From Dictyostelium discoideum (lineage: Eukaryota), in contig CM000153.2 of NCBI GenBank assembly GCA_000004695.1, positions 2,528,001 through 2,592,000 of the forward strand: a stretch of 64,000 nucleotides of DNA, in the 5' to 3' direction. A model generated the notes under the pieces. That model searched no databases. It was given only the letters and a program-made list of their open reading frames with translations, and was not told the origin of the DNA. The position numbers and the translations under genes are program-made. This document shows positions 33,552 to 48,100 of this stretch, in pieces (position 1 is the first letter of the stretch; each line of letters starts with the position of its first letter).

Positions 33552-33671
33552 TAAATTTATTTTTAACACGCAAAAAAAAAAAAAGAAAATGGTTTTGGGT
33601 GGCTTGTTTGGTTTTTTTATAATATTGATTAATTAATTAATTTATCCATCAACATTAATTAATAGGTTTAT

Positions 33672-34637
33672 TTAAGGATTTTTAATTTTTGAGTTATGGT
33701 TGGATGACAGCTCCCTTGAATAATCGTTAAGTAGGAAGTCTATTTTCTTAAGCATTATGCTTGAGAGGGTTGAGGATTTTTTTAATCTCCATCTGCGCTT
33801 GTTCATCTGTATGTTGGGTAGAGTGAAGGTGGTTGATAGGAAGTTGTGATCTGATAGAGGTATGTCATTAATTTTTGGGGGGATTAGGTTCCTTAAGTAT
33901 AATTGGCTGTAGTTGATTATGCTATTGTTAAGGTATATTCTGTCTAGTCTCCTTTCCAAGATTCTTGTGAGGTTATTGTTTGTGTTGTGTATCGTTCTTG
34001 AGAAGGTGGGTCTTTTATTTAGTTGGTCCATATCCATTAGGTTATTTGAAATTCTGATGGCTTCAATTACTGTGGCCATCTCATCTGGGGATTGTGTTGT
34101 CAAGTTGCCTTGGTCGTCATTTGATGTGTGATTGTCATTGAAGTCTAAACAATTGAAGTCACCTGCTATGATGTCGATGTTTTTATTAGGGTTAGACGTT
34201 AGGTTGTGGTATTGGTTGTTGAAGAGTTTGTTTAGTGTTGAAGCTAGTATTTTTCTTTTATCAGGTTGGGCCGGGGCGTATATGGCCAAGATTCTCGTTG
34301 TGGTATCTTTTATTAGAATGTCTGATATTATTAGTCTACCTTCTATTATGAATATTGGTGAGAGTTTTATGTTTTGGTTGTTGTGGTTTAGTATTCCTAT
34401 TCCGTTGCCTCTGTTGGTTGCGCTAATGATGAAGCCAGGAAATAGCTGGTGTGCTTGTGTTGCGTCAGCATTGAGTTCATTGACTATGGTTAGTGCCAAT
34501 GAGTTTGGGGGGNNNNNNNNNNNNNNNNNNNNNNNNNNNNNNNNNNNNNNNNNNNNNNNNNNNNNNNNNNNNNNNNNNNNNNNNNNNNNNNNNNNNNNNN
34601 NNNNNNNNNNNNTTTTTAAACGCGGCTTTAAATTCAA
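33672..34637 (-). CDS. Retroelement ORF2 N-terminal fragment: apurinic/apyrimidinic (L1-like) endonuclease domain, interrupted by the assembly gap
   Basis: EEP-family signatures are present: …IAGDFNCLDFNDNH… and …PLSDHNFL… (the catalytic D and SDH). Expected reverse-transcriptase motifs downstream are absent. Confidence 0.65.
   Translation of the reverse strand: MNLKPRLKXXXXXXXXXXXXXXXXXXXXXXXXXXXXXXXXXXPPNSLALTIVNELNADATQAHQLFPGFIISATNRGNGIGILNHNNQNIKLSPIFIIEGRLIISDILIKDTTTRILAIYAPAQPDKRKILASTLNKLFNNQYHNLTSNPNKNIDIIAGDFNCLDFNDNHTSNDDQGNLTTQSPDEMATVIEAIRISNNLMDMDQLNKRPTFSRTIHNTNNNLTRILERRLDRIYLNNSIINYSQLYLRNLIPPKINDIPLSDHNFLSTTFTLPNIQMNKRRWRLKKSSTLSSIMLKKIDFLLNDYSRELSSNHNSKIKNP
34513..34612. 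other. Assembly gap (100 N) within the retroelement, preceded by gggggg
   Basis: A direct run of n characters. Confidence 0.95.
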
Positions 34638-34665
34638 TTTAAATCCAATTTAAATCAACTTTTCT

Positions 34666-35088
34666 TTAAATTTGCTTTAAAGGTGCATTTTTCTTTGCTG
34701 TGGATTTAATTAGTTTACATCCTTCATTTTCTATTACCCATTCTATTTCTGTGAGTGATTTATACCAATCGAAATCCGTATACATATTTTTTGGTCTTAG
34801 AGTGGTTATAAATTGTCCTTTTAATTCTGCATCGAACATATTTACAAAATAGATTACTGTACTAATACTGTCTGTGAGAATTTTGAATGTATTATTACTT
34901 TTGATTAAAACATCTTTTTTGTCCAAACTTTTTTCTAAATCTTTTTTTATTTTATCGTCTGGTTCGTGATTGATGTTTATGACGTATTTGAATTGTTTTT
35001 TTTTTAATTGAGTTTTATCCACAATTTCGCTTATTTTTTGTAGGCATTTGTGTTGCTTAATATTTGTGGTGTTGTTTGTGATTTTCAT
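34666..35088 (-). CDS. Retroelement ORF1-like protein (140 aa)
   Basis: An intact ORF (MKITNNTTNIKQHKCLQKISEIVDKTQLKKK…) immediately 5' (on the minus strand) of the endonuclease ORF, inside the TRE-like element. Confidence 0.5.
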   Translation of the reverse strand: MKITNNTTNIKQHKCLQKISEIVDKTQLKKKQFKYVININHEPDDKIKKDLEKSLDKKDVLIKSNNTFKILTDSISTVIYFVNMFDAELKGQFITTLRPKNMYTDFDWYKSLTEIEWVIENEGCKLIKSTAKKNAPLKQI

Positions 35089-35163
35089 TTTATTTTCTTT
35101 CTATTTTTTATATTTTTCTTTAAAAAGTTAAAAATCTGGAAATTTTCTGATTAACTTGGTTCC

Positions 35164-35214
<51 letters not shown>

Positions 35215-35536
35215 TCTTTTTTATATGAAAAATGAAATAATCAAAAAAAGAGATTGTTGTTGTTGTTTGTTTTTTTTCGATCTGATTATTTTTTGCTTTT
35301 TTTTGAAAATTTTGCTACGCAAAATTCTCAAAACGAAACAAATAATAAATTACAATAAAGTAAAAAGATGGCTTTTTAAGATAGTTTATTTATTTATTTA
35401 TTTGTTTTTTAAGTCTTTTTTATATGAAAAATGAAATAATCAAAAAAAGAGATTGTTGTTGTTGTTTGTTTTTTTTCGATCTCAAAATTTATCCCAAGGA
35501 ATTGAAATACGGCGATCATTACAAGAATCCCATAAA

Positions 35537-35610
35537 GCCTTAGTAGCTCAGTTGGTACGAGCGTGAGACTGAAGATCTTAAGGTCGCTGGTTCGATCCCG
35601 GCCTGAGGCA
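35537..35610 (+). tRNA. tRNA-Phe(GAA): tRNA-Phe (anticodon GAA)
   Basis: gccttagtagctcagttggtacgagcgtgagactGAAgatcttaaggtcgctggttcgatcccggcctgaggca. The 7-bp acceptor stem GCCTTAG/CTGAGGC has one G-U pair. The D arm is GCTC…GAGC with AGTTGGTA. The anticodon loop is CTGAAGA. The T arm is GCTGG-TTCGATC-CCGGC, with discriminator A. Internal A and B boxes are present. Confidence 0.9.
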
Positions 35611-35642
35611 AATATTTATCAAACATTCAATAAAAAGCGCAA

Positions 35643-35656
35643 GTTCGATTCTCGGT
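35643..35656 (+). promoter_or_regulatory. External B-box-like element (gcaagTTCGATTCtcgg) about 35 bp downstream of the tRNA, followed by a T9 tract (35664-35672) as a likely Pol III terminator
   Basis: GGTTCGANTC-like match outside the tRNA body. Dictyostelium tRNA genes commonly carry such an extra B box, established knowledge as I recall it. The T-run ggtcacttttttttt follows. Confidence 0.45.
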
Positions 35657-35664
35657 CACTTTTT

Positions 35665-36317
35665 TTTTAAAATGAAAACTGGTCAATATTATAAAAAACA
35701 ACTAAATCATACTCAATCACCAAACCGTGTGAGATACAACACAGCAATACCCAAAGTATTCAAAACATCAACAGCATTTCTCACCAAAAAGGTAGAAACA
35801 CCCTCTTCAGATTCTTCTCAAGATCACTTCCAGGTATCAACCACGAAAGAGACACCAGATGCAAGATCTGTGGCCACCTATTCAGAGACCCTTATTCTCA
35901 CCTCTTCACTCTATGCCAAGATATCCTTGATATTGAAAAAACCATCATATCAACAGTTAAAAAATTATCATTCATCAAAATCCACAGATGGTCAATGGAT
36001 ACCTTAGACATATCAAAATACAACAGAACTGAGAGAATCTTCCCCAATCTCATAGGAATAATAGCACACCAATTATGGAAGATAATCTGTCACAAATTGT
36101 TCAACACTGATGAAAGCAAACCAGAGCCAAAATTCGAACAAAAGGTCATAGAAACAGAATTACTAAATCTCATCGAAACTGAAAAATTCATCACACTAAA
36201 GAAAATCAAACACGACGAAGCAATACTAAAAAACACCAATCAAGATCTTCACAAATACAAATTCAACAAAGCCTGGCAAACCCCAGCAGCTCCGAACCCT
36301 CTTCCAATTTAAGTAGT

Positions 36318-36400
<83 letters not shown>
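35665..36400 (+). mobile_element. 5'-truncated non-LTR retroelement 3' fragment with a ~78-nt poly(A) tail (36323-36400), within about 60-100 bp downstream of tRNA-Phe (TRE3-like position)
   Basis: Two overlapping decayed ORFs (35672..36007 and 35995..36312; …IAHQLWKIICHKLFNTDESKPEPKFEQKV…NKAWQTPAAPNPLPI) end in a long pure A tract. Position downstream of a tRNA and the plus orientation are consistent with the TRE3 class. Confidence 0.5.
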
Positions 36401-36408
<8 letters not shown>

Positions 36409-36696
36409 GTTTAAAAAAATTAATACAATTGAATAATAAAAATAAAACCGTTTAACAAACACCGCCGAAAAGACAAAAGGACATTCCTTGAAGGTCTGAT
36501 CACAGGTAAAAAAAAAAAAAAAAAAACAATCACCAAACCGTGATAACAAAAAAAAAGGCCAAATAAAAGAAAAAAAAATCATTGATCAAATTAAAAAAAA
36601 GATTGGAATAAATTTTATTTTAATAATTTAAGCCATTTAATAGTTGGTATTATAGAAATAATTTAAATGATAATGAAAACAATTTAAAACACCTTT

Positions 36697-36979
36697 AAAT
36701 GTGTATTTGGACATCAATACCAAGGATAAAGATTAATTAAATGAGAATCTGTATTTGTTTGAACCTTGTTACCACTTTGTTGTGTTTGATTAGACATTTG
36801 ATTTAATGATTTGAAACTTCTTTTGCTTGATTTAACATTACCTAAAGATGAAATTGATTCTTTTACATAATGTTTTGTAAAATTAAATTTTTTTTTTTTT
36901 TTTTTTTTTGTTAGTTTTTTTTTTTTTTTTAAAATTCAAAAAAAAAAACTTTTAAAATTTTATTCTTATTGTATAACAT
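36697..36979 (-). pseudogene. HssA/2C/7E-like unit 1, decayed: the splice donor is mutated (ACAATAAG instead of ACAGTAAGT) and an 8-bp deletion frameshifts the C-terminus
   Basis: An alignment to units 2 and 3 shows both lesions. The exon-2 reading ends …SHLINLYPWY*. Confidence 0.55.
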
Positions 36980-37557
36980 TTTGAAATATAAAAGAAATTA
37001 AATTGATATTGAATTTGTATTTGAAATGGAGTAGTTTAGAATTTTTTTAATTTCATATTTATACTTTTTTTTTTCAATTTTTTTTTTTCTCCTTATGTAT
37101 TTTAAATTACTATATTAGATATTCAAATTGAATATAAATCAATAATTTTAAAAAATCGCCTTTAAATAATTTTATTTTTTCAAAAAATCTTCTCCTAAAT
37201 ATTTTTTATTTTTAAAATCTAAAAAAAAAAAGCAGATCCTTGGATTTGTAATCATCTCTATTGGGAAAACAAAACTAATCCCTATATAAGATTGGATAAA
37301 AGAAAAAAAATTTAGTTTAAGATGTAGAACTCACAAATAATTGATTGAAAATAAAAAAAAAAAAAAAAAAAAAAATTTCTATCATGTTTGGTCATATTGG
37401 AAAAAAAGCTAAATCTTTGGCCAAATAAAAAAGAAAAATCTTTGATCAAAAAAAAAGAAATTAAATTTTTTTAAATTTATTTTATAAAAAAATATTGGAT
37501 AAAATTTTATTTAATCAATTAAGACTTTTAGTGTTTTGTATGATACAAAAAACACCT

Positions 37558-37841
37558 TTAAATTTGTAATTGGACATCAATACCAAGGATATTTGCAGAA
37601 AGATCTATTAAATGAGGATTTGTATTAGTTTGAACATTGTTACCACTGTGTTGTGTTTGATTGGATAATTGATTTACTGATTTGAAATTGTTTTGGCTTG
37701 ATTTAACATTACCTAAAGATGAAATTGATTCTTTAAAAATGTTGTTATGTAAAAAAAAAAAGTTTTTTTTTTTTTTTTAATTTTTTTTTTTTAATTATTA
37801 TTTAATTCAAATTTTAAAATTTTAAACTTACTGTATAACAT
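37558..37841 (-). CDS. HssA/2C/7E-family-like small protein (about 60 aa), unit 2. Exons: 37841..37832, 37730..37558
   Basis: Exon 1 is ATGTTATACA followed by a GTAAGT donor. Acceptor tttaaAG (37732/37731), phase 1. Product MLYKSISSLGNVKSSQNNFKSVNQLSNQTQHSGNNVQTNTNPHLIDLSANILGIDVQLQI*. The SISSLGNVKS motif and a C-terminal LGIDVQL resemble the HssA/B-like (sigN) small proteins. The family assignment is from memory. Confidence 0.5.
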
Positions 37842-38568
37842 TTTGAAAAATTAATGGAAAAGTTGGAATTATTGTAAATGTTTTAATTTGAATTGAAGTG
37901 GTTTACAATTATTTTTCATTTCCTATTTATACTCTTTTTTTTTTTTTTTTTCATATTTTTTTTTTTCTCAAAACATTAGTATAATATTATATGCAAATAC
38001 TAAATACTAAATAAATAACATAGATATTCTATTATCAAATCGTTAATTTTTTGTTGATTTTTATTTTAAAAAATCGCCTTAATTTTACAGATTTAAAAAA
38101 TCTAACATAAAAAAAGGCATATATTTGGATTTGTATTCAACTCTTAAGTGATAAAAATTCGGGATTTCGCGCCATGACAAGTTATTTTAATAAATGATAT
38201 ACTCCGCAACAAAGATTACGTAAACAAAAATAAAAAAAATCCATATTTTACACAAGCGTAAAAAAAAAAAAATTACAATTCAATTAGGAATTAATTTTTT
38301 TTTTATAAAAAAACCAACTGCCATCTTCAAAACTTTTAAAACCCAAAAACACTGGGTGATATTTGAAAAAAAAAAAAAAAAAAAAAAAATTGTTCTTTTT
38401 AGCAATAAAAGGAAAAAAAAAAATTGTTCTTTTTAGCAATAAAAGTAAAAAAAAAAATTCTATTTATAAAAAAAATTATTATTGTATAAAAATTTTATTT
38501 AATCATTTAAACCATTTAATGGCAGATACTATATAGAAAAATTTCAAATGATACCATTAAAATCACCT

Positions 38569-38856
38569 TTAAATGTGTAATTGGACATCAATACCAAGGA
38601 TATTTAGAGAAAGATCAATTAAATTAGAATCTGTATTTATTTGAACATTGTTTCCACTTTGTTGTGTTTGATTGGATAGTTGATTTACTGATTTGAAGTT
38701 GTTTTGGCTTGATTTAACATTACCTAAAGATGAAATTGATTCTTTAAAAATATGTTTTTGTAAAAAATATTTTTTTTTTTTTTTTTTTGTTAGTTGTTTT
38801 TTTTTTTTTTTATTATTTAAATCAACTTTTAAAATTTTAAACTTACTGTATAACAT
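38569..38856 (-). CDS. HssA/2C/7E-family-like small protein (about 60 aa), unit 3. Exons: 38856..38847, 38741..38569
   Basis: Same structure as unit 2. Product MLYKSISSLGNVKSSQNNFKSVNQLSNQTQQSGNNVQINTDSNLIDLSLNILGIDVQLHI*. An alternative acceptor at 38725/38724 is also in frame. Confidence 0.5.
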   Translation of the reverse strand: MLYSKFKILKVDLNNKKKKKQLTKKKKKKYFLQKHIFKESISSLGNVKSSQNNFKSVNQLSNQTQQSGNNVQINTDSNLIDLSLNILGIDVQLHI

Positions 38857-39469
38857 TTTGAAAAATTAATGAAAAAATTAAATTGATACTTGTTTTAATT
38901 TGTATTTGAATTGAAGTGGTTTAAAATTATTTTTCATTTCCTATTTATACTCTTTTTTTTTTTTTTAAATTTTTTTTTTTTTTTTTTACTTATATTAGCA
39001 TAAAATAATATCCAAATACCAAATACTGGTAATTAAAACAATTTAGATATTCTATTATAAAATCGAAAATGTTTTGCTTATTTTTTTTTAAAATAATCGC
39101 CTTTAAATAGTTATAATTTTACAGAATTTTTTTACTAAGAAATGGTATAAGATTAAAAAAAAAATTCTAGATCCAGCAAATTATTGATTTTTAAAAAAAA
39201 AAAAAAAAAAAATTTTGATAAATTTTAAAAATAAATACATTAAAATTTAAGCCTTTAAGGTGAAAAGTAATTTATGCTGCGCAAGTGGGTTGTTGTAATA
39301 AAAAAAAATCTTTATTGTTCAAGAGCTAAATCCACTAACAAATAATAAAATAATCTAAAAAAAAAAAAAAAAATCTAAAATAAAAAAATAAATAAAAAAA
39401 AAAAATTCGATGAAATTTTATTTCATTTTATCATTTAAGATATTTAATGTTTTATATTATAGAAATGAT

Positions 39470-39640
39470 TTTAATGATACCATTTAGAGCACCTTTAAAC
39501 TCGTAATCCAATACCAACACCAAGGATATTTGCAGAAAGAAAAATTAAATCTGTTATTTTTTTAATTTGTATTTGAATTGCAGTGGTTAACAATTTTTTA
39601 TTTCCTATTTATATTCTTTTTATTTTTTTTCTCCCTATAT
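39470..39640 (-). pseudogene. HssA/2C/7E-like unit 4 remnant: only the 3'-terminal coding bases fused directly to the promoter block, with an internal deletion
   Basis: …cacctttaaactcgtaatccaataccaacaccaaggatatttgcagaaag… is followed immediately by tttaatttgtatttgaattgcagtggttaacaatttttta tttcctatttatattc. Confidence 0.5.
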
Positions 39641-40201
39641 GTTAGTATAAAATAAAATAGCAAATACCTAATTAATATATTTTACTTAGATATTAACAAA
39701 TCGAGAATTTTATGTCAGATTTTTTTTTTTTTAAAAAAAAAAAAACGCCTTTAAATAAACCACTTGCACCACCTTTTTTTAAATTAATTATTATCAATAA
39801 TCTACAAAAATAAAATAGATAATTAATTAAACAATATTAATAATTAATAAATAATTATTAATATTATTTATGATAAAATACATTTCTTTCAACAAATCCC
39901 AATATCATATGTAATAATAAAAAAAAAAAAAAAAATCTTACTTAAGAACTGATATGCAATACTAAGAATTCAGAAGTCAAATAATAACCAATAACAATAA
40001 TTACCTTAAGATTTGCCAAAACTTCAAATTACTTTCCACAGAAAGTTTACATGTTTTTAAAAAATAAATAAATTTATTACACCCATTTAACTTTTCCTTC
40101 AAAATAAAAATGAGATGACTGAATAAATTTATCATTATATTTTATTTCAATTAATTATCTTATCTTATTTTATTCTATTTTATTTTAGAGTTTTTTTAAA
40201 A

Positions 40202-43160
<2,959 letters not shown>

Positions 43161-43518
43161 ACATTATTGTTACTTTTTAATTGGTGATATTGATATAAAA
43201 AAAAAAAAATAAAAAAATAAAAAAAAAAAATAAAAAAAAAATGAAAATAAAAAATAAAAAATAAAAAAAAAAAATAAAAAAAATAAAAATAGAACAAAGA
43301 AATAATTTTTTTTTTTTTTAATGTTTTTTTTTTTTTATTTATAAATATACATATCCAAAAAAAAGAAGGAAAAAAAATAAATAAAAAAAATAAATAAATA
43401 AATAATTGGTTTAAATTTAAAAACCAATAATTTTTTTTTTTTTGTTTTTTTTTTTTTTTTTTTTTCTTAATTCCCTTTCTATTTCTATCTTCTCACATAT
43501 ACCATTAAAATCGCGTTT

Positions 43519-44097
43519 TTACTTGGCATATTTTTTAGTCCATTCTTTGGCGGTTTTATTGAATGCATTTCTATCAGTTTTGAATTGTTGAGCGATTTCA
43601 GTTTCCAAAGGATTATCTGGGTTTGGATCAGTAAGAATTGAACGAATTGTTGTAAGAACATCAAGAATCTTTAATTGAGGACTCCATGTTGAGAATACTT
43701 CTGCACAAATTGCTCCATCAGATGTTTTAATATTTGGATGATAGATTTTAGTTGTAAATTTTAATGTTGGTGGTTTGAATGGATAATCAGCTGGAATATC
43801 AATATCCATACTAAATACACCTTTTTCGAATGGAGATCCTTCCTAAAGAAATTTTAAAATTTTAATTGAATTAATAAATTTATTATTAATATTATTTAAT
43901 TTATTTTTAATTATTTATTTCTTATTAATTTAAAACTTACTGGTCCTTGAACAGTTGCTTTCCATTTTTGTAAATTATCATCTACAAGATGAGCTGAACA
44001 CCATGATGGTGGAGTTTTGAGCATATCGGTGATTTCCTAAATAATTGAAAAAAAAAAAAAAAGTAATTAATATAAAAAATAAATGGTAAATAGTTTA

Positions 44098-44131
<34 letters not shown>

Positions 44132-44240
44132 CATATGTCCACTTTTTGTTTTTTTTTGTTTTTTTATTCTATTTTATTTCCTTTTTAATAATGTTTATCA
44201 TTTTAAGACTTACTTTTTGTAAACGTTTGTGAGCTGCCAT
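43519..44240 (-). CDS. Ubiquitin-conjugating enzyme E2, divergent UBC4/5 (UBE2D)-like, about 148 aa. Exons: 44240..44214, 44036..43941, 43842..43519
   Basis: Spliced product MAAHKRLQKEITDMLKTPPSWCSAHLVDDNLQKWKATVQGPEGSPFEKGVFSMDIDIPADYPFKPPTLKFTTKIYHPNIKTSDGAICAEVF…WSPQLKILDVLTTIRSILTDPNPDNPLETEIAQQFKTDRNAFNKTAKEWTKKYAK has the UBC fold motifs (YPFKPP, HPN…C, WSP, DPNPD.PL, EWT.KYA). Donors are GTAAGT (44213, 43940). Acceptors are ttAG (44038/37) and ctttAG (43844/43), all phase 0. Confidence 0.8.
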
Positions 44241-44393
44241 TATTTTGTTTCTGTTATACAAATTATCTATTTATTAAAAAAAGTTTTTATGTGTTTGTGT
44301 GTTTGTATATATATAAATAATATATGATAATAAAACTATGCGAATAAAGTGGTGAAAATTTGTGAAAAAAATTAAAAATTAAAAAAAGTGGGG

Positions 44394-44458
<65 letters not shown>

Positions 44459-44885
44459 TTAAAAAATTAATTAAATTGAAAATAAATAAATAAAATTATT
44501 ATATATCTTTAGAAGTAAACTATACTAAAAAAATATATAAAATTTTTTTTGTGATTGAGAATACACCAGAATAAAAGAAAAAAAAAAAAAAAAAAAATTA
44601 ATTTAATTTTATAAAAAAAAAAAAAAATAAATAAAAAAAATAGAAAAAAAAAAAAAAAAAAAAAAACAAAAAAAAAAAAAAAAATTAAATTTAATTTAAT
44701 GATTTTCAAAAAAAAAAATTATAAGAAAAATTTTAGAATGTGACAGTTCTTAAAATAGTTTGCAAAGATTTTTTGTCATATGAAAAAATATTACTTTTTT
44801 TTTTTTTTTTTTTTTTTATTTTATATTTTTTGTTTATAGTTGTTTTTATTATTATTAATATTATTATTATTATTATTATTATTAC

Positions 44886-44929
<44 letters not shown>

Positions 44930-45153
44930 TAAAATAAACTAATCCAAAATAAAAATTAAAAAAAAAAAAAAAAAAGAAAAAAAAATATCCAAAATAAAAA
45001 TAAAAATAATTGTGGTGAAGTGTTTGTTATTTGCAACCTTTTTAAAGAATTTTATTTTATTTTAATTTTTTATTTTTACAAGTTATTATTATTTTTATTT
45101 TAATTTTTATTTTTATTTTTAATAATCTATTTTTATTTTTTTTTTATTTTTTA

Positions 45154-48100
45154 TTATTTTTTTTTATCCATATGAATAGTTTTATTTCTTACAAATAACC
45201 TAAATTTAGCATCAGTCCTGTTCTTATGTATACAAAAAGCAATTGAAATAATTATAACAGCAGCAAAACCAACTGAACCAATAATAATACCAACAAGTTG
45301 AACAGTTGACAAACCAGATTTACTATTGATATTTGAACAAATAGAGTTATTGTTATTTGATGCTGATTTACTATCGATTAATATAGAAAAATCTATATAA
45401 AAAAAAAAAAAAAATTAAAAAAAATAAAAATTTTTTAAAAAAAAAGTTAGAACCCCAAAGTTTTAAAATTCAATAAAAAAAAAATAAAAAAAAAACATAC
45501 CTGGATCAATAATAATTGAATCACTATAATATGGTAATTGAATACCAATATAAGTTTGAGAAGATGCAGCATTTGTAATTAAATTCATTGATGAATCTAA
45601 TAAAATATTTGAAATTGTTTGAACTGTTGAATCTACGATTGCCCTCTTAATGAATCTACCATATAATGAAACAGTATCAACTTGAAGTTTAATATAATTT
45701 GAAATATCATCATCACTATCACTCGTTACACCAAACTCTTTACTTGAACAAATATCATCACTTTTAGAAGCTGATATTGATGCAGACATAATTAATTGTA
45801 ATTGATTTAATTTACTTGAGAAATCATAATTTGAAATATCGATTGTATATTTTATACTTGATGGATTCATTACCAATTGTTGATTTGCAAATTTAATAAT
45901 TGATTTCTCTTTAAACCATTGTAATGTTGCTGTGATTGTAGTTGTTGTATTTGATTTTGGTATGGTGATATTTGTAACATACTGATTTGTATTACTATCA
46001 ATTTGATTATAAACCCATTTTTCAAATGTATATGTATTAACTATATTTGATTGAAAATCTAATTCTCTTAATGAAACTAATGAAATTAATGATTTAAATA
46101 ATATTGTTTCAGTGTTTGTTTCATTATTATTATTACCACCACCACCACCAATTACTGGAATTTCAGTTGATGGATTTGATGTATTTGTACTTGGTTGTGG
46201 TACAATGATGACTTGAGATGTACAATCAATTCCAACCCATGGTGAATAACAAATACAACCATAGTTTTCTTTACAATATCCATTTTTTGAACCACCACAT
46301 TCTGGTGTACCAGCACATGGAATTCTTGGTTTTATTGGTGGTTTTGGTGATGGATCAATAAAATTATAAACTACTGGATAAACTGTAAATTCATTTGATT
46401 GATTAAGATTATTTAAACTTACGACTTTGATAATGAATGGGTTTGTAGTTGGTTTAATATCATTAATTATTATTGATGTTGAATATGATATAGTTGGTGT
46501 TGAAACTTGTGGAAATACTAAATTACCATCTAAATATTTTATATGAACTTTATAATCAGTTTGAAAATGTTTACCAATAATTAATAATTTACCACCACTT
46601 GATGTAATAATTGAAACTTTTGAAATTAATAACTTTTTAATTAATGGAATATTTGACATATAATAAGAGTTTGGTGAAATACTCATTAATCTCTCACTTG
46701 AGTAACCACCAAAATAACCACCATTATTAATTAAACCATAAACACTAAATAGTATATCAGATTGGTACCCGAATCCATAAGGAAGATCAATTTGGCATTT
46801 ATAATCAATTGTATTATTATTAACAATAGTTTTAATTTCTGAAGTATTAAAAATACCTTCAAGTTGTTTCGAAGTAGCATAAACTATTGGTAATTGATCA
46901 GATTTCAATCCACTTTCTGGATCAGTTACTTGAAACTCGAATAATAAAGTTTGACTATTATCTTGAGATGAGACTACTCTTGAAGATTGGAATGATAATA
47001 ATACTGGTGGTGTTTGATCTTGATAATCATCACAATAAATTGTTATCTTATTAATAGTTGGGTCACCAAAATAATTAATGAAAGGATTCGAAGGTGCATC
47101 AAAACTTTTAGTCATATAAAATTCACATGAATAACCTTGTTTATCAAACAATTCAATTTCAATAATTGAATATGATTGAGTTGCACAAATATCTGGAATT
47201 GTTACAATGATATCATGCTGTCCTAAAAATTCATTACCACTAATAATTGTATTATTTGATAAATTAATAGTATATCTTGAGCCATCCATATCACCTCTTA
47301 CAATAACATGACCATAATCAAATCCATTAATTTCATCTTGAATTGTAACTGACCATTTAATTTGATTTGGATTTTGTGATATACTTTTATCTATTGTTTT
47401 AAAAATTGGTCCATATTGATCAAATCCTTTTTTTAAAAAAAATAAATAATTAGTATTTTTTTTAAAAAAAATAAATAAATAAATAATATTAAAAAACTTA
47501 CTTGATGAAGTTACATATAATTGATTCGATGCTGGAAGTAATTGACTATAAAAGTTTGTATAAATACTTCCTAGTTTAATATTATAATTAAAGTAACCAG
47601 TTTTAACATTTGCAGGTACTCTAAATTCAACTTGAAACAATTTAATTGTTGAATTCCATTTTGCAAAACATTGTTTAGATATTCTTCCATTTAATAATTT
47701 AAAATTGTTTAAAAAAACAACCTCTAGCTCAACATTAGTTTCTGTAACATCTGTAAAATTAAAGTACATTATATTATCAATTGATTTGTTTGTGGTGTTA
47801 AGATTATTATATAAAAATGATACATTTTGAATGAGGTATATATTATATATATTAAATGCAGTTGCATCATAAACAAATTTTGGGGGAATTGAAGAATAGT
47901 AACTTGGTTGACTTGTATAATATGGTGAACTTTTTCCACTTGAACCACGAATTTCAATTGTACCTACACCTGAATTTGTATTTTCGTAAACAAATTCATA
48001 CATTGATGGACCATTAATACCATCACCTTCAACTAATGATCCATATCCATATGGTTTATTATTAATTGTAATAATCCCATTTACAAAATCATCACTAGGT

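Follow-up and report, generated by a model that had tools for sequence, protein, structure and literature searches.

The locus and its tRNA gene

We analyzed a stretch of 64,000 nucleotides of Dictyostelium discoideum DNA (GenBank assembly GCA_000004695.1, contig CM000153.2, positions 2,528,001 to 2,592,000 of the forward strand), hereafter called the window, which is part of chromosome 4 of the AX4 reference and has a G+C content of 24%. It carries a tRNA-Phe(GAA) gene with the first 782 bp of a TRE5-A retroelement upstream and, downstream, a 5'-truncated element that is probably of TRE3 type. Left of the TRE5-A piece lie the beginning of a small inverted-repeat element, a gap of 100 N and a fragment encoding an apurinic/apyrimidinic endonuclease (APE). 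The coordinates are collected in Table 1.

According to ARAGORN, this is the single tRNA gene in the whole 64 kb, and both ARAGORN and Rfam recognize the canonical tRNA-Phe that a preliminary description of the DNA had proposed. The gene is PheGAA-11 (AX4 chromosome 4, 2563537-2563610; Table S2 of PMC5391098), the listed coordinates exceeding those in the window by exactly 2,528,000. No other chromosome-4 tRNA gene of that table falls in these 64 kb, and the PheGAA primer of the same study matches the gene at 35537-35610. De novo integrations of TRE5-A(bsr) hit PheGAA-11 in three libraries, with 5, 1280 and 403 mapped reads (PMC5391098). PheGAA-11 is a documented target of TRE5-A in vivo and is present in the reference genome.

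Across the 64 kb, a search with the pattern GTTCRANYC yielded GTTCGA-type matches at only two places: the tRNA gene's internal B box GTTCGATCC and an external B box GTTCGATTC 3' of it. About 80% of the D. discoideum tRNA genes have an external B box (PMC5911963). The run of nine T residues beyond it is likely the RNA polymerase III (Pol III) terminator. The external motif and the terminator-like T-run had both been recognized in the preliminary description.

Further genomic loci, numbered L001 to L008, served for comparison. The orthologous region was found in another D. discoideum assembly, the sister assembly (GCA_054883475.1, CM142510.1, 2,964,263-3,004,592), by way of a 272-aa truncated-APE gene and then a 464-aa member of the cluster resembling the protein of open reading frame (ORF) 1. 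It is covered by L008 and L007, which were merged through an identical overlap of 2,676 bp. L005 and L006 were also considered as orthologs and rejected, as they have other flanking genes or tRNAs. Element identities, boundaries, target-site duplications (TSDs), orientations and distances were read directly from these sequences.

A TRE5-A element upstream of the tRNA gene

The 782-bp piece upstream of the tRNA gene shows a DNA identity of 98.5-99.7% to copies in L003, L006 and L008 of the other D. discoideum assembly. Its terminus CGATCTCA is common to the window and the L006 copy, which sets the element's 5' end at 35484. The spacer from there to the start of the tRNA gene at 35537 is 52 nt, and the two are transcribed in opposed orientations. 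Published work places TRE5-A 44-54 bp upstream of tRNA genes in opposite orientation (PMC5911963, PMC5391098), a rule that the spacer and orientation at PheGAA-11 satisfy. Other copies have spacers of 47 nt (tRNA-Asp, L006) and of about 47 nt (tRNA-Thr, L002, D. cf. discoideum), with opposite orientation in both cases. A minus-strand retroelement with its 5' end near the tRNA gene had been described before; the element is present, at 52 nt rather than the reported distance of about 54 bp.

At the orthologous locus, copies of the 13-bp TSD CAATTCCTTGGGA flank a full TRE5-A (merged coordinates 9594-9606 and 16004-16016). The proteins of the matching copies are an ORF1 product of 444 aa and an ORF2 product of 1047 aa with an RVT_1 domain, the latter identical to DDB_G0269056, which has been named 'TRE5-A ORF2' (PMC12405889). 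This fits TRE5-A, whose ORF1 product is about 51 kDa and whose ORF2 combines APE, RT and a zinc finger. The published layout of TRE5-A is AB-ORF1/ORF2-BC, with a duplicated B-module that is absent from TRE5-B and TRE5-C (PMC3159450). In the orthologous full copy, the B-module of the window (34878-35212) recurs 3' of ORF2 (L008 15522-15858), with a C-module-like segment, A10 and the TSD behind it; the L006 copy likewise ends in B/C. Based on this structure and on the dictyBase name obtained through the exact protein match, 34703-35484 is assigned to TRE5-A, the DNA comparison having been made against genomic copies.

The number of A-modules differs widely among the copies. A TRE5-A(.2-like) copy upstream of tRNA-Asp (L006 8503-9849) has about seven tandem 199-bp A-modules, compared with one and a partial one in the window. 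Internally deleted TRE5-A.2 variants have been reported (PMC3159450).

Of the TRE5-A coding region, the window contains ORF1 codons 1-129 only. The ORF at 34666-35088(-), which joins these codons to 11 read-through codons of the inverted-repeat element, exactly matches DDB_G0284873 (Q54P21, 140 aa), a 'hypothetical protein' of AX4. DDB_G0284873 is an annotation artefact and not a host gene. Several more AX4 'hypothetical proteins' from the same clusters are also TRE ORF fragments.

A small inverted-repeat element within ORF1

A 761-bp element that resembles miniature inverted-repeat transposable elements (MITEs) splits ORF1 of TRE5-A after codon 129, and the window shows its first 90 bp. These 90 bp have no similarity to the expected continuation of TRE5-A. 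An interpretation as a degraded read tail of TRE5-A ORF1 was rejected, as the alignment scored below that of shuffled sequence. The terminal inverted repeats of the complete element are CACAGCAAAGAAAAA..CACCTTTAAA and the inverted copy of it.

Both arms hold arrays of TTTAAAGGTNATT repeats of about 12 bp, and there is an apparent 2-bp duplication (TC) where the element inserted. A perfect B-box consensus, GTTCGAATC (minus strand, L008 10945), lies in its center together with the near-B-box GGGGATCGAATCCC. Matches to models of MITE-derived microRNAs were weak. The element may be of the 'thug' type.

A TRE3-type element downstream of the tRNA gene

The elements other than TRE5-A are referred to here as families X, Y and Z, working names for TRE3-type families of retroelements without long terminal repeats (non-LTR) that carry no subfamily letter (A-D). 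The family Y element 3' of the tRNA gene is 90-93% identical to copies in L004 and L005, and its similarity to a longer copy starts at 35729/35730, exactly where the left copy of the 16-bp TSD CAATCACCAAACCGTG ends. This TSD begins 104 bp 3' of the tRNA gene and 71 bp 3' of the external B box, and the element lies in the orientation of the tRNA. The preliminary description had let it begin just after the external B box (~35665); the insertion point lies 104-119 bp 3' of the tRNA gene. TRE3 elements are found 40-150 bp downstream of a tRNA gene whose orientation they share (PMC5911963), a rule that family Y satisfies with its 104 bp and its strand. Other family Y copies lie 96 bp after tRNA-Cys (TSD GTTTGTTAGTTTGT) and 88 bp after another tRNA-Phe, also with TSDs and in the same orientation.

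The hallmarks of target-primed reverse transcription are all present at the family Y insertion, namely the TSD, a terminal oligo(A) and a 5' boundary within ORF2. The search for TSDs that had been proposed for this locus recovered one for each of the two flanking elements, the 13-bp CAATTCCTTGGGA of TRE5-A and the 16-bp CAATCACCAAACCGTG of family Y. The landing pad recognized earlier, flanked upstream by TRE5 in opposite orientation and downstream by TRE3 in the orientation of the tRNA, agrees with the published distances of 44-54 and 40-150 bp (PMC5911963).

Four family Y copies (two in L005, one each in L004 and in the window) have the same 3' structure of ORF2 stop, A tract, tail and oligo(A). 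The conserved tail of about 108 nt ends in ...GATCACAGGT and is followed by the terminal oligo(A), beyond which the sequences diverge. A plus-strand 3' fragment had been described correctly at this position, but the A tract taken for its 78-nt poly(A) tail is internal and 79 nt long, and the true tail is the A19 at 36508-36526. In the other copies the A tract is shorter (about 28-35 nt), as it is at the orthologous locus (28 nt). The surroundings of the tract at this locus (window 36321-36399, 79 nt; merged 8750-8777, 28 nt) show no substitutions between the two assemblies, and the difference in length reflects microsatellite-like instability, or else one of the two lengths is wrong through assembly or sequencing. 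The C-terminus encoded by family Y shows 26% identity to the ORF2 product of family X (44 bits, E 2e-9) and 25% to that of TRE5-A (32 bits, E 2e-5).

The APE fragment left of the gap

The protein encoded at 33691-34512 is 96% identical to residues 59-332 of P0086, an ORF2 product of 1260 aa in which an Exo_endo_phos domain (weak) and an RVT_1 domain indicate APE followed by reverse transcriptase (RT). In contrast, its identity to the ORF2 product of TRE5-A is 23% (E 0.07), and no DNA match to the TRE5-A copies was found. Pfam, applied to three ORF fragments of the window, gave a sub-threshold Exo_endo_phos match for the APE piece and left the other two without a match. At the DNA level the fragment is 98.9% identical to copies in L001 that lie 3' of tRNA-Leu. 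Family X, to which it belongs, has an ORF1 product of 359 aa. Its copies, arranged in tandem with TSDs, lie 3' of tRNA-Leu(CAA) and of tRNA-Asp and share the orientation of the tRNA, which is TRE3 behavior. The earlier view of ORF1 and APE as parts of one element is not borne out, as the ORF1 piece is TRE5-A and the APE piece family X.

The fragment is truncated at its 3' end at 33691. The truncation is real because the junction is the same in both assemblies (window 33691, L007 10891). Truncation at the 3' end is unexpected under target-primed reverse transcription. The sequence stops inside ORF2 (after ...NHNS) and continues with AAAAATTAAAAAT and the 3' untranslated region (UTR) of a host P5-ATPase-like gene.

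A minus-strand TRE3-type fragment is out of place upstream of a plus-strand tRNA gene. Therefore, we suspected an inverted second tRNA gene inside the gap.

The orthologous locus spans the gap

The 100-N gap, at 2,562,513-2,562,612 of AX4 chromosome 4, had been noted before as internal to the upstream region. On its left side, window 23644-34512 matches the sister assembly with 0 mismatches over 10,869 bp. On its right side there are 0 mismatches over 1,736 bp (34613-36348) and 4 mismatches over 8,823 bp (36372-45193), and the remaining differences are homopolymer lengths. The gap edges correspond to merged positions 10476 (window 34613) and 29490 (window 34512), which are 19,013 bp apart.

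Read from the side of PheGAA-11, the sister assembly continues with the remainder of the 761-bp inverted-repeat element and the rest of an otherwise intact TRE5-A that is 99.8-99.9% identical to other copies. Next come a mini element built from parts of the A-module and the C-module, the diverged remnant of an A-module, and then an inverted tRNA-Phe(GAA) gene (L008 17198-17271, Rfam 62.5 bits) with its own external B box. A distance of 7.6 kb separates this second tRNA-Phe(GAA) gene from PheGAA-11, and the two are divergent. Its position falls in the gap, so that Table S2 of PMC5391098 appears to lack it among the chromosome-4 tRNA genes of AX4. The absence of RT and downstream domains that had been ascribed to the upstream element is contradicted by the full-length TRE5-A that this independent assembly holds within the gap.

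Downstream of the second tRNA-Phe(GAA) gene lie three nested TRE3-type elements. A TSD TTCAATTCCTAT belongs to family Z at the external B box, and a TSD ACGAGAATT to a full-length family X element 43 bp into Z; the outermost member of the array is the APE fragment at window 33691-34512. The nested TSDs show that the insertions were successive, with the outermost member the oldest and each insertion 40-105 bp from the tRNA gene when it occurred. Once the later insertions are subtracted with the help of the TSDs, the 5' end of the family X fragment comes to lie about 105 bp 3' of the second tRNA-Phe gene.

Family Z, the fourth family here, is a 5.3-kb non-LTR element (L007 3201-8486) with a gene model of 1596 aa containing Exo_endo_phos and RVT_1 domains. 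The external B box of the second tRNA-Phe gene is its exact insertion site (TSD TTCAATTCCTAT), and in the Cys/His region it shares 47% identity with family Y.

These results bear on the idea that a single unusual, TRE5-like deletion derivative with ORF1 and APE, without RT and without poly(A), lies upstream of the tRNA gene. In its favor, the two fragments share the minus strand and lie next to each other on either side of the gap, and internally deleted TRE5-A.2 variants exist (PMC3159450), L006 being an example. However, the APE fragment is far closer to the ORF2 of another family (96%) than to that of TRE5-A (23%, E 0.07) and has no DNA match among TRE5-A copies, the ORF1 piece is interrupted by an unrelated inverted-repeat element rather than joined to the APE fragment, and 19 kb with a second tRNA gene separate the two in the sister assembly. 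We regard the chance of such a derivative as close to nil. Of the two explanations offered earlier for the odd appearance of the upstream element, an assembly collapse (about 19 kb in the sister assembly) has held up and a deletion derivative has not.

The array also speaks to the proposal that the family X fragment is an untargeted or mis-scaffolded stray unrelated to any tRNA gene. In its favor, ARAGORN finds no minus-strand tRNA gene to the right of it within the window, and the fragment is 3'-truncated. Against this, it is the outermost member of a nested array, about 105 bp from the second tRNA-Phe(GAA) gene after subtraction of two later insertions, and it meets the host DNA at the same junction in both assemblies, which makes a stray origin extremely improbable.

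AX4 itself might truly differ, with a small gap from which deletion or rearrangement removed most of the TRE cluster. Strains can vary in their transposable-element content, and the internal A tract of 79 versus 28 nt shows that the two sequences are not byte-identical. Yet the sister assembly continues the sequence unbroken at both gap edges, without a single substitution in 12.6 kb, the contig ends lie inside multi-copy repeats, the expected breakpoints of a Sanger-era assembly, and 90 bp of the inverted-repeat element at the gap edge are sensible only if the remainder follows. A true difference is therefore very unlikely, and from a sister assembly of essentially identical genotype we infer that the AX4 gap probably holds the same ~19 kb.

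Other features of the window

The window has a second 100-N gap, and around it (4500-4650) the flanking runs TTTTCCCCGGGGGGGGGGGGGGTTTTT and GGGAATTTTT resemble low-quality read ends. Just ahead of it, a stretch of about 50 bp (TATCGAACCTAAAATCCATTTTAAAATT...) is duplicated at 3990 and 4326. An exact 16-mer repeat scan revealed three tandem units of about 105-110 bp, AAATGAAAATATCTTGAGCTTTTTAGAAA..., at 20663-20890.

Table 1. Features of the tRNA-Phe(GAA) locus in window coordinates
Feature	Position	Strand	Remarks
100-N gap	4537-4636
Family X APE-endonuclease fragment	33691-34512	-	ORF2 residues 59-332 of 1260; 3'-truncated at 33691
100-N gap	34513-34612
MITE-like inverted-repeat element (761 bp), first 90 bp	34613-34702	-	remainder probably in the gap; continuous with L008 10387-11147
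TRE5-A 5' portion	34703-35484	-	782 bp; 98.5-99.7% identity to TRE5-A copies
TRE5-A ORF1 codons 1-129	35088 down to 34703	-
TRE5-A B-module/5' UTR		-	with ORF1 ATG at 35088
TRE5-A A44 tract	35168-35211	-
TRE5-A partial A-module (72 bp)	35212-35283	-
TRE5-A terminal TG and one A-module (199 bp)	35284-35484	-	A-module proper 35284-35482
TRE5-A 5' junction, 7 extra nucleotides	35485-35491	-
TRE5-A 13-bp TSD CAATTCCTTGGGA	35492-35504	-	partner follows C-module and oligo(A) at the orthologous locus
tRNA-Phe(GAA)	35537-35610	+	ARAGORN; Rfam RF00005, 62.5 bits
Internal B box GTTCGATCC	35590-35598	+	B-box pattern search
External B box GTTCGATTC	35643-35651	+	B-box pattern search
T9 run	35660-35668	+	earliest T-run 3' of the tRNA gene, beyond the external B box
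Family Y TSD CAATCACCAAACCGTG (16 bp), left copy	35714-35729	+
Family Y, 5'-truncated element, putatively TRE3-type	35730-36526	+	797 bp; alignments to L004/L005 copies
Family Y ORF2, C-terminal 193 codons	35731-36312	+	CX2C...HX4C motif
Family Y internal A79 tract	36321-36399	+
Family Y conserved 3'-UTR tail	36400-36507	+
Family Y terminal A19	36508-36526	+
Family Y TSD CAATCACCAAACCGTG (16 bp), right copy	36527-36542	+

Discussion

We consider it about 90% probable that the locus is a standard tRNA-gene landing pad for non-LTR retrotransposons targeted to tRNA genes (TREs), of which the AX4 reference conceals about 19 kb behind a gap. In the proposed sequence of events, TRE5-A would have integrated about 50 bp upstream of the tRNA-Phe(GAA) gene with its 5' end towards the tRNA, by target-primed reverse transcription that, according to published work, is guided by TFIIIB and TFIIIC at the tRNA gene. 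The small inverted-repeat element would have landed later in ORF1 of TRE5-A, and the AX4 contig ends 90 bp into it. On the other side, the TRE3-type family Y element would have integrated about 104-119 bp downstream in the orientation of the tRNA, 5'-truncated to 797 bp and leaving a 16-bp TSD. The APE fragment would be the far end of a nested TRE3-type array downstream of the second, divergent tRNA-Phe(GAA) gene inside the gap.

TRE5-A integration needs a functional B box, and the ORF1 protein binds TFIIIB subunits (PMC3159450, PMC5391098). Target-primed reverse transcription leaves TSDs, 5' truncations and extra 5' nucleotides (PMC3159450, PMC5391098), and every one of these footprints was found at the PheGAA-11 locus. 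The targeting of TRE3 is less well known; the positions observed here would fit targeting relative to the internal or the external B box (PMC5911963).

Three points weigh against this reading. The TRE3 status of families X and Y, whose subfamily is unlettered, is suggested by position and orientation at two to three tRNA genes each and by ORF2 homology, and family Z would likewise be TRE3-type to judge from its position and orientation and from ORF2 homology. The sister assembly and the AX4 record are two different sequences, which disagree in homopolymer lengths and in 4 substitutions over 8.8 kb. Finally, the 3' truncation of family X at 33691 needs a cause; it is presumably a deletion, with internal priming at an A-rich site as an alternative.

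The AX4 reference under-reports the locus if, as we suppose, the gap contains the second tRNA-Phe(GAA) gene and ~19 kb of nested TREs. A further thought, which we rate as very unlikely, is that B-box-bearing 761-bp elements could, if they recruit TFIIIC, seed TRE landing pads away from tRNA genes.

The element upstream of PheGAA-11 resembles TRE5-A (formerly DRE) in the 5' end that is turned towards the tRNA gene's 5' end across a 52-nt spacer, in the 199-bp A-module, in a B-module that bears the ORF1 start and is duplicated in the 3' UTR, and in the C-module, oligo(A), TSD and extra 5'-junction nucleotides. It shows no difference in kind, the window displaying the first 782 bp with ORF1 interrupted after codon 129. 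The downstream elements share with TRE3 (TRE3-A to -D) insertion points 45-105 bp from the tRNA end at the six tRNA genes examined, as well as TSDs, oligo(A) tails, 5' truncation, tandem or nested arrays, and an ORF2 with APE, RT and a C-terminal Cys/His motif. Family Y differs from TRE3 in that an internal A tract of variable length (28-79 nt) separates the ORF2 stop from the conserved terminal segment of about 108 nt. As with Ty3 of S. cerevisiae, Pol III transcription-factor complexes at tRNA genes serve as safe-haven integration sites for TREs. However, Ty3 is an LTR element with an integrase that inserts at the transcription start and is targeted via TFIIIB, whereas TREs integrate by target-primed reverse transcription, either about 50 bp upstream or about 100 bp downstream.

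The phenomenon, the TRE families and PheGAA-11 as a target are all known already, and nothing at the locus is novel. The value of the analysis lies in annotation. In AX4 chromosome 4, about 19 kb with an unlisted tRNA-Phe gene are probably represented by 100 N. The protein DDB_G0284873 consists of a truncated TRE5-A ORF1 with transposon sequence fused to it. Moreover, anyone who calls element ends by eye can take the long internal A tracts of family Y for poly(A) tails. For the biology of D. discoideum the weight of the locus is small: it represents a textbook case of TRE5/TRE3 targeting in the species in which this targeting was discovered.

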